Below, one piece after another: positions 3,384-10,448 of a stretch of DNA of 64,000 bases (positions within the stretch are counted from its first letter, which is position 1; each line of letters opens with the position of its first letter). The position numbers were made by a program, and so were the translations under genes. This stretch comes from Terriglobia bacterium (GTDB lineage: Bacteria > Acidobacteriota > Terriglobia > 20CM-2-55-15): the NCBI GenBank assembly GCA_965198225.1, contig CBDAOY010000005.1, positions 384,001-448,000 on the forward strand, written 5' to 3'. The notes below the pieces were generated by a model. It was given only the letters and a program-made list of their open reading frames with translations. It was not told where the DNA came from and did not search any database.

Positions 3384-4214
3384 GTGCCCATGCGCCGCTC
3401 CCGAACCCGGATCTGGTCGAGTGTATTCCTGACCGTTCTGTTAACTGCCCCCTGGGCCGCTGCCTTCGGACAAAGTGTCCGGTTCCAGGGGGAGCAGATC
3501 GAGCGTTTCCTGGCTGGAGCACTGATCACGGATATGGAGAGCTCCCTTCAAGGCGTGACCCGGCCACGTAAGGCGACATTGGAGCTCGACGGGACGACCC
3601 ACAACGCAGTCTTCAAGAACATCGACGTCTTCAGGCCGGGCGTGACGACTCTGGGGGGAGGGACGGTCGAGATCGACTTTCAGGACAGCTGGAAAACGGA
3701 AGTCGCCGCATATGAACTCGACAAGCTGATCGGGCTGGGCATGGTGCCGGCGACCGTTTCGAGGGTTTACTCTCGACAGCGCGGATCCATGCAATGGTGG
3801 GTCGACAGCATAATGACCGAGTACGATCGAGTGAGCCAGGGCGTGCCGGTTCCGAACGGCGAAGCCTGGAACCGGCAACTCTACAAAGTTCGGCTCTTCG
3901 ACAACCTGATCTACAACGTCGACCGGCACCTGGGCAACGTGCTGATCACAGAAGACTGGCGGGTCTGCCTGATCGATCACTCCAGGACGTTTCGCCGGCG
4001 GACCGAGTTGCGTGCGCCGGACGATCTCAAGCGGTTCTCGAGATCGTTGCTTAGGGCGATCGAGCTCCTGGACGAAGACATATTGAGGGAAACGCTCGGC
4101 GCCTACCTCACCGGCACACAGATCCGGGCGATGCTCGAAAGGCGCGACAAGATACTCGCTCTGGCAAAGGAGAGGGTGCAGGAACAGGGGCAGGAGAGAA
4201 CACTTTATCCGTAG
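3384..4214 (+). CDS. Exported atypical kinase-fold protein (PI3K/PI4K-like), paralog 1
   Basis: Sec-type signal peptide (..LLTAPWAAAFG|Q); beta3 Lys AVFK, alphaC Glu EVAAYELD, catalytic loop DRHLGN, metal-binding IDHS. Confidence 0.8.
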   Translation: MPMRRSRTRIWSSVFLTVLLTAPWAAAFGQSVRFQGEQIERFLAGALITDMESSLQGVTRPRKATLELDGTTHNAVFKNIDVFRPGVTTLGGGTVEIDFQDSWKTEVAAYELDKLIGLGMVPATVSRVYSRQRGSMQWWVDSIMTEYDRVSQGVPVPNGEAWNRQLYKVRLFDNLIYNVDRHLGNVLITEDWRVCLIDHSRTFRRRTELRAPDDLKRFSRSLLRAIELLDEDILRETLGAYLTGTQIRAMLERRDKILALAKERVQEQGQERTLYP

Positions 4215-4331
4215 GCCGTTGTCCGTAGGCCGTTGTCGTGGTCAGTGGTCAGCCTAAAGAAGTGCACCTCTTGCTTGCTACTCGTTAGTCGTCACTTGTC
4301 ACTCGTCACTTGTCCCTCGCCACTGACCACT
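4208..4331. repeat. 14-bp tandem duplication plus degenerate 7-nt tandem repeats
   Basis: tccgtaggccgttg x2 at 4208-4235; gtcactt gtcactc gtcactt gtccctc gccactg further on; lies between convergent genes. Confidence 0.7.
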
Positions 4332-4355
4332 TCTTCGATCTTGTCAGCCGCCACT

Positions 4356-4901
4356 CTAGCTCTTTCTCCACAAACTCGCTTCCCACCGGTCCAGGGGGGT
4401 AAACAGTACGTTTCAGGTGGCCTCGGCGGCCTGGCGGTTCAGCGCGGACCCCATCACGTGGGGTATCGAACGCATCTCTCACCCCGGGGTGGCAAACGCC
4501 GCGGCCACGATGAAGGAAACACCGAGGTGGCCCAGAATGTAGACCATCAGCGATAGAACGAGCGCCCCGAAAGGCGGTCCCCACCAATCCCAGTAGGCGA
4601 TCAGATCGAATCCCACCGCCAGGAGGGCGAGAACCAGAAGAATGATCTGGCCGCGCTGGGCCGATTCCAGTCCGAAACCCCTCCGGAAGACCGCTCCGAA
4701 GAAGAAGAAGGAAAGGACCATGCCGACCAGAAGGCTGACGGGCAGTTCCGAACCTTTCCGTAATGCGAAGAATCCTTCCCAATTCCCGAGCGTGTTCAGG
4801 AGCAGGCTCAGCACGGCCAGGCCCATCGCGAGCCGGACTCCGCGCCCGATCGGTCCGGGCCGCGGCAGCGTCCCCGCCTCGACGGTTTCGGTGACGGCCA
4901 T
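4356..4901 (-). CDS. Small multi-pass membrane protein (DUF6410-like); candidate selenoprotein with two in-frame UGA codons
   Basis: The ORF track stops at TGA 4479-4481, but the frame continues ATPG-U-EMRSIPHVMGSALNRQAAEAT-U-NVLFTPLDRWEASLWRKS-TAG (second TGA 4413-4415, TAG 4356-4358). A hairpin follows each UGA. The start is coupled to the upstream stop (TGATG). Confidence 0.72.
4382..4397 (-). promoter_or_regulatory. Putative bacterial SECIS element after UGA 2
   Basis: CCC-CUG-[GAC]-CGG-(bulged U)-GGG; loop G is the 22nd nt after the UGA, the same offset as in the first element. Confidence 0.45.
4448..4464 (-). promoter_or_regulatory. Putative bacterial SECIS element after UGA 1
   Basis: Stem ACCCCA/UGGGGU with loop CGUGA; loop starts 20 nt after the UGA, with G at loop position 2 followed by U. 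Confidence 0.6.
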
Positions 4902-5122
4902 CACTGTCTCGCCAGGTCGGTTTGTGTGCCCGAGGTCCTCTTCTCTCCGTCATCGGCGCCGGGCAATACACACCAGAACCCAGGCCGACCTCGCGCGATG
5001 CCGATCCCCCAAATGATAAGAAGCAATGGCCAGATGTAATCCCAGGCTTCGTAGGGCAACATCCCCAGATTACTCAACAGGAACACGACGCCGATGAACG
5101 CGATCAAGTAGCCGCACCACAT
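4901..5122 (-). CDS. Small two-TM membrane protein (DUF5668/LiaF-like)
   Basis: G..LI..GV.FLL.NLG.......WPLLLI..GI pattern; RBS GAGGAGG upstream. Confidence 0.8.
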   Translation of the reverse strand: MWCGYLIAFIGVVFLLSNLGMLPYEAWDYIWPLLLIIWGIGIARGRPGFWCVLPGADDGEKRTSGTQTDLARQ

Positions 5123-5269: not shown

Positions 5270-6025
5270 TCAGGCCCCTTCCAGCTTCTGCAGCAGTTCC
5301 TTGAGTCGTCGCCGACTCACTTCAAGCTTTGTGCCGTCCTTCAGGGTGACCTGCCCGTAGCCGCCGACGAGCGGCACGACCTCGTGCACGGCATCCAGAT
5401 TCACGATGGCCGAACGAGAGATTCTGAAAAAACTGGACGGGTCCAGCCGCCGTTCCAGGTCGAGGAGAGTCGGCTGCATCCAGAACTCGTCCTTGGAGGT
5501 ACACAGTTTCGTGAGACCTTCGTCGGAGCTGAAGTAAAAGACGTCGACGGCGGCAACCACTCGATACTTTGTGGCCCGCCTGGCCAGGAACCGCACGGCT
5601 CGCCCGGCCGGTTCGCGCGTCAGGTCTTCGACAATACGATCCGCTTCCTCCGGTGCAGCATCGCGGACCCGCTCGACGGCGCGTACGAGACGCGCCTTCG
5701 TCACGGGCTTGAGCAGGTAGTCGACAGCATGAAGATCAAACGCATCGATCGCGTACTGGTCGTAGGCCGTACAGAAGATGATCTTGGGCGCGGGCGAGGT
5801 CAGGGAGGCGGCAACCTCCAGGCCGCTCGAAACCGGCATCTGGATGTCGAGCAGGACGAGATCCGGCGTCAATTCATAGATCTTTTCCAGGGCCTCCTGC
5901 CCGTCTTCGGCCTCTCCGACGATGTCGATTCCTTCGATCGATTCCAGGAGCTGGCGCAGGCGTGCGCGGGCCGGTTGCTCGTCGTCGACGATGAGCGTGC
6001 GTGTGGCTGTCTTTGTTGACGACAC
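5270..6025 (-). CDS. LytTR-family DNA-binding response regulator
   Basis: LIVDDE, LLDIQMP, FCTAYDQYA, DYLLKP, FFRISRSAIVN, VSRRR. GTG at 6025 lies just after the kinase stop; the ORF track extends to 6064. Confidence 0.93.
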   Translation of the reverse strand: MSSTKTATRTLIVDDEQPARARLRQLLESIEGIDIVGEAEDGQEALEKIYELTPDLVLLDIQMPVSSGLEVAASLTSPAPKIIFCTAYDQYAIDAFDLHAVDYLLKPVTKARLVRAVERVRDAAPEEADRIVEDLTREPAGRAVRFLARRATKYRVVAAVDVFYFSSDEGLTKLCTSKDEFWMQPTLLDLERRLDPSSFFRISRSAIVNLDAVHEVVPLVGGYGQVTLKDGTKLEVSRRRLKELLQKLEGA

Positions 6026-6026
6026 G

Positions 6027-7910
6027 TCAGGCTGTCCGAACCACCCGCTTGACGGGCATCTCAACCGAAACCACTGTCAGACCGGTGGTGGTATCGGAAC
6101 GTGCGCGAAGCAGGGCGGTGTCACCAAAGTACCCACTGAGTCGTTTCCGGATGTTGAGGAGACCATAGCCGGGGGCTGAGGACTCATCTCGTTCGGAGGG
6201 TATTTCGAAACCGGGACCATTGTCCCGAACATCGATCTGCAAACGGTCTTCCCTGAGACGCGCAGCGACCTCGATCCTGCCCGGGCCCCGGACGGCCGCA
6301 ACCCCGTGTTTGATAGCGTTCTCGACGAGCGTCTGGACGATCATCGTCGGCACCCGCGCATCCCGCACGTCGTCATCCATCTCGATCGTGAACTCGAGCC
6401 GCGGTCCGAACCGGGCCTGCTCCACTTCCAGGTAGGCTCGAAGAAACTCCATCTCGTCTTCGAGCCGGGCCCATTCCTTGTCGGAACGGCTCAAGGTGTA
6501 CCTGAAGATATCGGCGAGTCCTTCGACCGTCTCTTCAGCGCGAGCGGGATCTTTGGGAATCAACCCGGCAATCGCGTTCAGCGCGTTGAACAGGAAGTGG
6601 GGATTGATCTGGGCGCGCAGCGCCTTCAACTCGGAGCGACTGGCCTGGAGGCTCAGCTCCCGCCCGCGTCGATCTTGCTCCTGTCTGGCTTCCTGCAGGT
6701 GGACATTGTCCAGCATGGACGAAAAGACGTTGGCAAGCGAACCGAGCAGCGTCATGTCCCGCTCGAAGTACGGAATGTCGTTTCGACGCGATCCCATTCG
6801 AATCCGGCCGGCGATGCCGCCCTCCGACTCGAAGGAAACTTCTTCGACCGCTTCAAAGCTGTCCGCGGAGCGGGATTCCATCTCGACCCGGGCAGGCGCC
6901 TCGAAGACGACACCAAGCCTCTGCTGGGCCCGTTCAATGAGATCCCTCTCCGTCGTCGCTTCCTGCAGCCCTGCCAGAAAGAACTGAACGGCCTCCACGG
7001 GCTGATATCGCCGCCCCAGCCAGGCATGGTCGAGCCATTCGCCCAGCCGTTTGTGGATCCATGGCGCCGCCAGAGCCACCGGCAGGAGCGTGAGCGCATA
7101 CACCCAGACCGCGGCCCAACCCAGTTGGAGCCTTTCCACGCTCGGGAACACAAGGGCGAAATAAGAGACCAGCAGCCCGAGCACGATGAAGAGAAAGCCG
7201 CCGCGTTTGACGAAGACATCGAAGAACCCGAACCGCGAATGGTAGTACTGGCTGGCAAACAGAAAGTAGAGAGGGCAGGAACGGAGGAACACGTCCCCCT
7301 GAGAACCAAAGACATTCCAGCCGAGCACCTCGGCGACGATCAGGAGAAAGATCACCGACATCAAACCTGTAAACCACTTTCGGCTCATGCCCTCCCGACC
7401 ACCCTCTCGACCTCTGCGCGAACGACGGCTGAGATAGATCAGGAACCCGATCGCGATCATGAACTGCAGGTTCAGGATGAGTATGAGCGGCTGCATCAGC
7501 CCGCCGAGCGGGGCGCCGAAGAGCTGGAGCGAAATACCGAAGGCGAGGACGATCGCAACCAGGCTGACGACGTACACCGCACTGATGCCGTGTTTCCAGA
7601 AACCGGCGACCGTGGCTTCGTTTCCGACGTAGAGGTTGTGCATCATCGTCGGTGGGAAGAGAAAAGCGACGATCAGCAGCATCAGGTCGACCACCGGCGC
7701 GGGGCGTCCCCCCTGCTCGGCGAGGATCTCCAGAAAATTCAGACCGAACCACGCGGCACAGACCAGCAGGAAGACTCCGCCGACAAGATGTTCTGAACCG
7801 GAACAATAGGAGTGCGTATGTCGTTTCTGATGACGTTCGCTCAGCCAGAAGACAAAGAACGACAGGAAAGCCAGCGCACCGAATGTGTAGAGCAAGGTCC
7901 CGACCAGCAA
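6027..7910 (-). CDS. LytS/YehU-type membrane sensor histidine kinase
   Basis: Multi-TM N-terminus, LRAQINPHFLFNALN H-box, ENAIKHG, DNGPG, GYGLLNI. Confidence 0.93.
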   Translation of the reverse strand: MLVGTLLYTFGALAFLSFFVFWLSERHQKRHTHSYCSGSEHLVGGVFLLVCAAWFGLNFLEILAEQGGRPAPVVDLMLLIVAFLFPPTMMHNLYVGNEATVAGFWKHGISAVYVVSLVAIVLAFGISLQLFGAPLGGLMQPLILILNLQFMIAIGFLIYLSRRSRRGREGGREGMSRKWFTGLMSVIFLLIVAEVLGWNVFGSQGDVFLRSCPLYFLFASQYYHSRFGFFDVFVKRGGFLFIVLGLLVSYFALVFPSVERLQLGWAAVWVYALTLLPVALAAPWIHKRLGEWLDHAWLGRRYQPVEAVQFFLAGLQEATTERDLIERAQQRLGVVFEAPARVEMESRSADSFEAVEEVSFESEGGIAGRIRMGSRRNDIPYFERDMTLLGSLANVFSSMLDNVHLQEARQEQDRRGRELSLQASRSELKALRAQINPHFLFNALNAIAGLIPKDPARAEETVEGLADIFRYTLSRSDKEWARLEDEMEFLRAYLEVEQARFGPRLEFTIEMDDDVRDARVPTMIVQTLVENAIKHGVAAVRGPGRIEVAARLREDRLQIDVRDNGPGFEIPSERDESSAPGYGLLNIRKRLSGYFGDTALLRARSDTTTGLTVVSVEMPVKRVVRTA

Positions 7911-9556: not shown

Positions 9557-9626
9557 GCAGGCAACCGTATCTCAGTGACAGAAAAGGATGTACGGGTCGA
9601 TGTCGGCTCGCAAGGAGATCCCCTCC

Positions 9627-10448
9627 ATGAATAGTACGAACTGCCGCATGAGAACCCTACTGGCGCTTCTGGCGTTGGGCCCGATCGCCTCCTGGACCAG
9701 CGCCCAGGAGGGCGTGAAGTTCCAGGGGCCGGAGATCGAGCAGTTCATGGCCGAAGCCTCGATCACGGGGATGGTCGACATCGGAGAGGGCGTCACGCGA
9801 CCGCAGAAGGCGACGCTGGAACTTGACGGGGAAACGCAACACGGCGTTTTCAAAACCGTCGACATCTTCCGCGAAGGTATGACGAGGGTCGGCGACACCA
9901 TGGAGATGAACTTCCAGGATAGCTACAAGACCGAGATCGCGGCTTATGAAATCGATCGCCTGATCGGGCTCGGTATGGTGCCGACAACGCTGGAGAGGTC
10001 GTACCGCGGGGATATGGGATCTCTGCAATGGTGGGTCGAGAGCGAAATGTCGGAGGCCGACAGGGCACAGGGCCGCATCCTGCCGCCGGACCGCCAGAGC
10101 TGGGGTCGGATGATGTCGAAGGTCCGGCTCTTCGACAGCCTGATCTACAACACGGACCGCCATCAACGGAACATCCGGATCACGAAGGACTGGATCATCG
10201 TCCTGATCGATCATTCACGTGCCTTCCGTACCGAAAAGGAGTTGCGAGAGCCTGAGCGGATCACGCTATTCTCCAGGTCGTTGCTGGAGAATATTGCTAG
10301 ACTGGACGAAGATACGTTGAAGGACCGTGTCGGAAGGCACCTGACGATCTTTCAGATCCGAGCCGTGCTGGCCCGACGTGATCTTCTACTCGAACGAGCC
10401 AAAGAACTGGTCGCCGAACGGGGAGAGGAAAGGGTCCTTTTCCCCTGA
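9627..10448 (+). CDS. Exported atypical kinase-fold protein (PI3K/PI4K-like), paralog 2
   Basis: Signal peptide (MRTLLALLALGPIASWTSA|QE); GVFK, EIAAYEID, DRHQRN, IDHSRAF; collinear with 3384..4214. Confidence 0.82.
   Translation: MNSTNCRMRTLLALLALGPIASWTSAQEGVKFQGPEIEQFMAEASITGMVDIGEGVTRPQKATLELDGETQHGVFKTVDIFREGMTRVGDTMEMNFQDSYKTEIAAYEIDRLIGLGMVPTTLERSYRGDMGSLQWWVESEMSEADRAQGRILPPDRQSWGRMMSKVRLFDSLIYNTDRHQRNIRITKDWIIVLIDHSRAFRTEKELREPERITLFSRSLLENIARLDEDTLKDRVGRHLTIFQIRAVLARRDLLLERAKELVAERGEERVLFP

Follow-up and report, generated by a model that had tools for sequence, protein, structure and literature searches.

The stretch of DNA analysed here (the window: 64,000 nucleotides (nt), positions 384,001 to 448,000 of contig CBDAOY010000005.1 in assembly GCA_965198225.1 of a Terriglobia bacterium) carries, on its reverse strand at 4356..4901, a gene for a small membrane protein whose reading frame contains two UGA codons. 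With a probability of roughly 0.9, judged from sequence comparisons, this is a real gene for a 181-amino-acid (aa) integral membrane protein with two selenocysteine (Sec) residues, which gene callers truncate at the first UGA. The called open reading frame (ORF) runs from GTG 4904 over 141 aa (140 residues from ATG 4901) to TGA 4481-4479; when TGA is read as Sec (U), the protein continues as ...AFATPG-U-EMRSIPHVMGSALNRQAAEAT-U-NVLFTPLDRWEASLWRKS and ends at TAG 4358-4356. Relatives begin at a Met matching ATG 4901-4899, which was therefore taken as the start of the full gene, with GTG 4904 as an alternative; ATG 4901 overlaps the TGA stop of the upstream ORF by one base. Counted from ATG 4901, the Sec residues are 141 and 163 (U142 and U164 from GTG 4904). 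The first UGA (4479..4481, reverse strand; Sec141) lies in the motif TPG-U-EMR at the predicted cytoplasmic end of the fourth transmembrane helix (TM4), the second (4413..4415, reverse strand; Sec163) follows after 21 codons, and both align to an invariant Cys. An earlier note on this DNA, made from its letters alone, had placed a TGA at 4479-4481 between ATPG and EMRSIP, followed by 21 open codons, a second TGA at 4413-4415 and a TAG at 4356-4358, and had proposed a 181-aa read-through product; translation confirms these coordinates, and the length is correct when counted from ATG 4901.

An open frame of such length past a stop is unremarkable in G+C-rich DNA, and it is the comparative evidence (homologues, TGA conservation and synonymous sites), not the single sequence, that raises the observation above chance. 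A word-indexed protein search with the read-through product as query found 217 proteins at E<=0.01, of which 120 were listed. Nine of the 11 best hits are 139-141 aa long and cover just 77% of the query, and therefore stop where the first TGA lies; remoter hits are about 180 aa long and cover 92-98%. From the 120 listed proteins we chose 27 full-length homologues and aligned them with the window protein. Both UGA columns are occupied by Cys in 27/27 of them (TPG-C-EMR and EHxC), which is what the earlier note had expected of the homologues, and 19 more columns are invariant, including E143, M144, R145, E161, D172, W174 and E175 past the first UGA.

The earlier note would have been contradicted by homologues ending at ATPG. 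The nearest database proteins do end in ...ATPG, but this is an artefact of gene calling, since the DNA of those relatives continues in frame. The extent of such truncation was seen in an exhaustive HMMER search, which gave 208 representatives at 50% identity and E<=0.001: in 22 of the 150 listed, the protein's own C-terminus falls exactly in front of the position of the first UGA (site 1), and all 21 of these that were fetched end in ...PG. In four further representatives (P0220, P0208, P0212 and P0197) site 1 is Cys and the protein stops at, or shortly before, the position of the second UGA (site 2), which suggests that they may be Cys/Sec hybrids. The entries of the closest relatives, of 139-141 aa and held at NCBI and ENA as truncated, unnamed proteins, would also fit a first UGA that is a true stop, in which case the functional product would be a 140-aa protein of four helices, and the 40 codons that follow would be the decaying remnant of what was once a Cys-form gene. 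Such a truncation would, however, remove both invariant Cys positions together with five other invariant residues.

A decaying remnant is further contradicted by the DNA of related organisms. A six-frame search of 40 related genomes gave a match in nine, and the five strongest, which span query residues from 1-182 down to 12-176, each contain exactly two TGA codons: these are the window's own genome (G000), G002 and G003 (both 66% identical to the window protein), G012 (55%) and G026 (38%; another family). The other four matches are partial, with no stop inside in G020, one TGA in G028, three TGA in G001, and three TGA and one TAA in G019. A sample of 401 genomes from the phylum contributed G063, with two TGA, and four genomes with Cys forms. 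In the five other genomes (G002, G003, G012, G026 and G063) the TGAs stand at the same two codons and are followed by ...LDRWE and a stop. Scanning metagenome contigs for the pattern PG-TGA-[ED]-M-R-x-I-P, which would overlook TGA forms as divergent as the G063 one, produced 35 loci, comprising 23 family members and 12 chance matches; site 2 is TGA in 22 of the 23 family loci and TGT in the remaining one (L149). The conservation past both UGAs that the earlier note looked for is thus present in the homologue alignment as well as in the DNA of the TGA-form relatives, and a remnant would not be expected to keep the frame, a second TGA at a Cys codon and the ...LDRWE tail across 31-66% identity. 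The TGA forms (n=23) fall on one side of a branch in a quick tree (Shimodaira-Hasegawa-like approximate likelihood ratio test 94), the only tree reported, with sampling biased by the two search patterns; on these sequence relationships they form a subfamily separate from the Cys forms.

Errors of sequencing or assembly, for which only the prior that errors occur can be cited, would be another source of unexpected stop codons. Contigs from four runs of four studies, one of which may be the source of the window, cover the gene and show no difference at either TGA, the variant strain in X6 included; the TGC or TGT that the earlier note had named as a possible finding in raw reads did not appear. 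Given this agreement, which refutes an error in the record, and the recurrence of both TGAs in five other genomes, of the first in 23 metagenome loci and of the second in 22 of those, the chance that the codons are artefacts is negligible.

Two irregular copies were met in the course of these searches. One, in the window's genus (L029 in G001, an assembly fragmented into about 230 contigs), is degenerate and apparently frameshifted, with three TGA, and is recognisable only in its tail ...TT-U-NVLFTPLDRWE. The other belongs to G105, which has two near-identical Cys-form copies, L119 (G105:C4) and L113 (G105:C3), one of them with a TGA replacing a Trp codon inside TM2; this TGA is a matter of a pseudogene, an assembly duplicate or an error, and a Sec site is excluded there.

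Each of the two UGAs is followed by a hairpin resembling a selenocysteine insertion sequence (SECIS). Hairpin 1 (4442..4473, reverse strand) has, in the fold of the window sequence, a core stem ACCCCA/UGGGGU (4464-4459 with 4453-4448), the loop CGUGA (4458-4454) and a lower stem (4473-4470 with 4445-4442). Hairpin 2 (4370..4411, reverse strand) has a core stem CCC.CC/GG.GGG (4399-4394 with 4387-4382), the loop UGGACC (4393-4388) and extended lower stems. The earlier note had described a loop G as the 22nd nt downstream of each UGA, and it was found at both; the hairpin tips lie 23-28 nt past the U of each UGA. Among 25 TGA-form sequences, 22 of them distinct, CCCCA/UGGGG is invariant at positions 19-23 and 29-33 from the U of the first UGA, with a CGUGN loop, and the 5-bp core is paired in 22/22 distinct sequences. 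For hairpin 2 the TGA forms share a CCCRCC/GGUGGG stem and a UGGAYC loop, with 84.9% of cells paired in 24 sequences, and three sequences have a shifted yet paired variant (GCUC.../...GAGU). An Rfam scan found no matching model, the hits being at chance level only (E of 3 or more).

The most telling property of the two regions is the conservation of their synonymous sites. In distinct TGA forms the Pro codon of hairpin 1 is CCC in 26/26 and the Gly codon GGG in 26/26, with variation in the codons on either side; in the Cys forms (82 distinct ones) this Pro is encoded by CCG in 29, CCA in 18, CCC in 16 and CCT in 9, and the Gly position itself is unconserved. At site 2 the TGA forms show a codon bias towards ACC, CTG and CGG/AGG, which is absent from the Cys forms. 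Third-base entropy was determined for 14 conserved four-fold-degenerate codon columns in 23 distinct TGA-form genes, which are 31-97% identical in pairwise comparison (median 43%), the third bases of the hairpins being unconstrained by the metagenome search pattern: it amounts to 1.23-1.79 bits in the ten columns upstream of the first UGA versus 0-0.26 bits in the four inside the hairpins. In the metagenome locus L149, a natural hybrid, site 1 is TGA and hairpin 1 is intact, whereas site 2 is TGT and hairpin 2 is absent. A remnant behind a true stop would not freeze synonymous sites in two hairpins, and even though the folding energies of these hairpins are unremarkable, as a true stop would allow, we consider it very improbable that translation simply ends at the first UGA.

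The genome to which the window belongs has the complete set of genes for Sec insertion. SelA (537 bits), selB (387 bits), selD (373 bits) and tRNA-Sec (72.9 bits) all score above curated cut-offs, and the tRNA is also called by ARAGORN as tRNA-SeC with anticodon tca, so that the selA, selB, selC and selD that the earlier note would have expected in this genome are all four present. The SelD protein itself (G000:C9:419380-420303, locus L010) contains Sec in the motif SAG-U-AGK, and its gene has a hairpin 13-31 nt past its own UGA with the tip at 21-23 nt, close to the tips of both hairpins described above. SelA is present in 5/5 of the other TGA-form genomes and also in four Cys-form genomes; its presence is therefore necessary, not discriminating.

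Conservation downstream of the UGAs would be equally well accounted for if these were read through as something other than Sec, by a near-cognate tRNA (Trp or Cys) or following reassignment of UGA in the lineage. TGA is, however, used as an ordinary stop nearby, namely in the upstream LiaF-like ORF and in the G003 and G026 orthologues; both sites align to Cys, which is the signature of Sec/Cys exchange; a conserved hairpin stands at SECIS distance after each UGA; and the genome encodes the full Sec machinery, including a SelD that itself contains Sec. Read-through of this kind is thus highly unlikely, and decoding of the UGAs as Sec very likely on this comparative evidence. A separate SelB-type SECIS hairpin within the coding sequence would then serve each UGA, and the selA, selB, selC and selD system of the organism would be expected to insert Sec at both.

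The AlphaFold model of the protein (predicted local distance difference test score 90.1, predicted template modelling score 0.83) has helices at residues 18-40, 56-77, 82-104 and 110-137, followed by 143-154 and 168-181. Lys and Arg are concentrated in the N-terminus, in the turn between TM2 and TM3 and in the C-terminal tail, with a mean count over 28 sequences of about 13.8 on the proposed inner side versus about 1.0 on the outer side, which under the positive-inside rule would place both termini, and hence both Sec residues, in the cytoplasm. We infer from the model and the charge distribution a protein with four transmembrane helices and an N-in/C-in topology, in which Sec141 would be located at the cytoplasmic end of TM4 and Sec163 22 residues further on, between the two short helices.

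No described family was found to include this protein. It has no significant Pfam hit and no NCBIfam hit at E<=1, and accordingly no match by hidden Markov model (HMM) in Pfam or NCBIfam that would make it a member of MerT, MerC, MerE or MerF; scans of several homologues against the two libraries yielded no usable match either. Searches for relatives in the PDB gave none, either by fold (Foldseek: best E 0.2, TM score below 0.3) or by sequence profile (best E 0.11), and the ESM Atlas returned unnamed clusters only (best score 0.88). The earlier note had stated that related, DUF6410-like small membrane proteins carry GCE...C..F.P.D..E, and this is partly right. Both Cys and the overall architecture recur in a paralogous family of about 160 aa (G-C-E-V ... 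H-L-x-C ... P-I-D; G-C-E-V ... C..F.P.D..E), which is homologous to the selenoprotein family (hhalign probability 97%, E 8.6e-11) and matches PF19948 (DUF6410) with 21.4 bits (E 2.5e-4) and 19.8 bits, below the gathering cut-off of 25; the window protein, on the other hand, has no DUF6410 hit at E<=1, and neither do three Cys forms. DUF6410 had no match in the window's genome, a weak blank given that control genomes gave no signal either. The gene of the paralogous family often adjoins the Cys-form gene (loci L112-L114, L088, L051, L061, L080 and L098).

A 2026 review (PMC13188914) inventories 119 prokaryotic selenoprotein families, the vast majority of them with one Sec, bacterial selenoproteins with two Sec making up a small subset. 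No entry among the 119 families in Table 1 of that review fits the architecture or motif of the window protein, and nearly all of these families carry Pfam or NCBIfam models, none of which the window protein matches. The two-Sec membrane family is apparently unlisted in the table of this inventory. DUF6410 and GDCCVxC are unmentioned in the papers covered by our literature search, and titles and abstracts of the literature on novel mer transporters contain no description of the family.

Indications of function come from the Cys forms. For 80 Cys-form loci (about +/-3 kb each) ORFs were called and clustered, and representatives were named by NCBIfam; one or two representatives underlie each cluster label, and the MerT/HMA cluster is heterogeneous. 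With this understood, a MerR-type regulator occurs in 44/80 loci, a MerT-like/HMA protein in 29/80, the GDCCVxC (seleno)protein in 25/80, the DF-family (seleno)protein in 15/80, MerB and Trx-HMA in 8/80 each, MerA or related flavoprotein reductases in 6/80 and a MerC-like protein in 5/80. At least one mer-like neighbour is found in 53/80 loci, at least two in 43 and at least three in 34, and one MerA representative scores 797 bits, above the cut-off. Gene orders are mer-operon-like with the family gene usually distal, e.g., MerR< GDCC> FAM> or MerR< MerT> MerA> FAM>. Some proteins of the family are also fused to other domains: P0200 and P0204 to a C-terminal domain like the DF-family (seleno)protein (E about 1e-9, below the cut-off), and P0083, P0076, P0078, P0109, P0113 and P0195 to an additional domain of four helices that has a conserved HCYFxGPWC motif and matches no family.

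Because the Cys-bearing relatives belong to MerR-controlled operons resembling those for mercury resistance, a role with soft metals can be proposed, in which the Sec pair would form a binding or transfer site of the Hg(II) type on the inner, cytoplasmic face of the membrane; we put this forward tentatively, its odds being somewhat short of even, and a redox-active selenol pair would be the main alternative. The mer-operon setting of the Cys forms thereby gives indirect support to the redox or metal-binding role that the earlier note had suggested.

In the window itself, the gene is the last in an operon that is shared by its family and genus and comprises a LytS kinase, a LytTR regulator and a LiaF-like gene. 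Directly upstream lies a gene for a LiaI/LiaF-like transmembrane protein of 73 aa (4901..5122, reverse strand; PF18917, E 2.8e-9), which is conserved upstream in L022-L025, and it is preceded in the same operon direction by a LytTR-type response regulator (5270..6064, reverse strand; Response_reg E 1.5e-26, LytTR E 1.9e-21) and a LytS-type membrane histidine kinase (6027..7910, reverse strand; His_kinase PF06580 E 4.7e-27, HATPase_c E 1.3e-8). Clustering of ORFs at the TGA-form loci revealed no common partner except, within the window's own family, this LiaF-like gene, and a Pfam scan of ten TGA-form neighbours found unrelated functions and one ArsR-type regulator (L139). Location in a MerR-controlled mer cluster was seen for the Cys forms (at least one mer-like neighbour in 53/80 loci, a MerR-type gene in 44/80), not for the window gene or the other TGA forms.

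A number of results weigh against the interpretation of the gene as a double selenoprotein that handles soft metals. With regard to the RNA, single-sequence folding energies are no better than those of shuffled sequences (z +1.28 and -0.24 for 60 nt; +0.11 and -0.77 for 50 nt), an internal C-U mismatch interrupts hairpin 2 in the window, and there is almost no compensatory covariation, both sides having changed in 0 pairs of hairpin 1 and 1 of hairpin 2, with neither hairpin exceeding shuffle controls. Since the stems hardly vary, covariation statistics are uninformative, which leaves conservation at synonymous sites as the basis of the RNA argument. The TGA forms, being one clade in the quick tree, are not independent samples. 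With regard to function, the proposal is made by association and from the Cys forms only: mer-like neighbours occur in 0/6 TGA-form genome loci (with flanks of only 1.5 kb), no cluster labelled mer-like was found near the metagenome TGA-form loci, and the best MerA match in the window's genome stays below the cut-off (406 versus 454 bits). No DF-family gene was found in it, nor GDCCVxC, the latter blank being weak, as control genomes gave no signal either.

The location of the TGA subfamily outside mer operons, together with the two-component sensor operon in the window's genus, would be in keeping with a genuine two-Sec protein whose pair is a redox centre (selenol/diselenide), acting in a membrane oxidoreductase or as a redox sensor for LytS/LytTR. 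Most selenoproteins act in redox chemistry, according to PMC13188914, numerous charged residues around the pair are invariant (E143, R145, E161, D172 and E175), and there are the fusions to, and neighbourhoods with, the DF-family (seleno)protein domain, which looks thioredoxin-like by eye. The spacing, C-x21-C, is nevertheless unlike CxxC or UxxC, no similarity to a thioredoxin fold or a known oxidoreductase was found in the Pfam, NCBIfam, Foldseek/PDB and PDB profile searches, and the embedding of the Cys forms in MerR-regulated operons with MerA, MerB and MerT points to metal handling. A redox centre is on balance rather unlikely. More doubtful still is a wider proposal that would join the two contexts, namely that this is an unrecognised double-Sec membrane family split off from an undescribed membrane component of mer operons, its bis-selenolate site having an affinity for Hg(II) and soft metals far above that of any thiol pair and serving as a trap or sensor coupled to LytS/LytTR, not in the classical mer pathway.

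The closest known systems include accessory membrane proteins of mer operons, namely MerC, MerE and MerF. Like these, the Cys forms are found downstream of MerR, MerT and MerA, in the manner of accessory transporters, and have a conserved Cys pair; unlike them, they belong to a family that is non-homologous by HMM and often stands beside MerT- or MerC-like genes instead of replacing them. The likeness to DUF6410 (PF19948), which is without known function, exists only through the paralogous family of about 160 aa and is sub-threshold. GDCCVxC (NF041374) and DF (NF049942) proteins also alternate between Sec and Cys and occur particularly often beside the Cys forms (in 25 and 15 of 80 loci), but they are unrelated, soluble and small.

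As for the RNA elements, the SECIS of the E. coli fdhF type is a SelB-binding hairpin inside the coding sequence, directly 3' of the UGA, with G/U in its apical loop. The window hairpins are similar in being in frame just after the UGA, in having G/U in the loop and in a tip distance like that of the organism's own selD hairpin; they differ in that two elements lie 66 nt apart in one short gene and in their family-specific stems (CCCC/GGGG and CCCRCC/GGUGGG).

Sec forms of mercury and heavy-metal transporters are listed in Table 1 of PMC13188914: PF02411 (MerT-type with C/SxxU), NF045683 (MerT/CopZ fusion-like) and NF033936 (SO_0444 Cu/Zn efflux). These resemble the window family in that they are small, integral to the membrane and part of soft-metal systems, with Sec in place of a metal-binding Cys, and MerT-like genes occur in the same operons as the Cys forms of the window family. 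The latter, however, shows no sequence similarity to them in the Pfam and NCBIfam scans (no hit at E<=1), has four helices without CC or CxxC in a transmembrane helix, and has its two Sec 22 positions apart on the predicted cytoplasmic face. Two Sec per bacterial protein are also known from MbdU (NF045648), UXX-star family 1 and TsoB (PMC13188914), but such double selenoproteins have CU, UxxU or UxxxxU motifs or a repeated domain, and NCBIfam models, none of which the window protein matches, its two Sec being 22 apart in a membrane protein.

Some further features of the locus were recorded. A short dispersed repeat immediately follows the gene on its downstream side (window 4265-4345, core about 4289-4318). 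An 81-nt query matched, at E<=1e-3, a further 39 sites in the genome to which the window belongs (40 of 85 candidates scored); 30-45 nt of the repeat are common to many unrelated contigs in four runs, and it is probably an intergenic element similar to repetitive extragenic palindromic sequences. The operon is flanked by ORFs 3384-4214 and 9588-10445, both on the forward strand and of 276 and 286 aa, respectively, which are alike N-terminally (...FQGxxIExF...A.IT) after a signal-like start and may be paralogous secreted proteins; ORF 3384-4214 has only a weak Fam20C-kinase-like hit (E 0.0035).

Recognition of the family would correct existing annotation: of its 50%-identity clusters, 150 of which were listed, at least 22 are stored as proteins truncated before, and hence without, the two key residues. 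The current inventory of selenoproteins consists mostly of soluble redox proteins with one Sec (PMC13188914), to which the window gene would add a membrane protein whose two Sec residues are encoded separately, 66 nt apart and each with an in-frame SECIS of its own. For mercury biology, the finding would mean that an uncharacterised four-helix membrane protein is a frequent part of MerR-controlled operons in sediment bacteria, and its frequent adjacency to the GDCCVxC and DF families, which alternate between Cys and Sec, suggests that selenium may be used more widely in mercury-like metal handling than the characterised mer proteins show.

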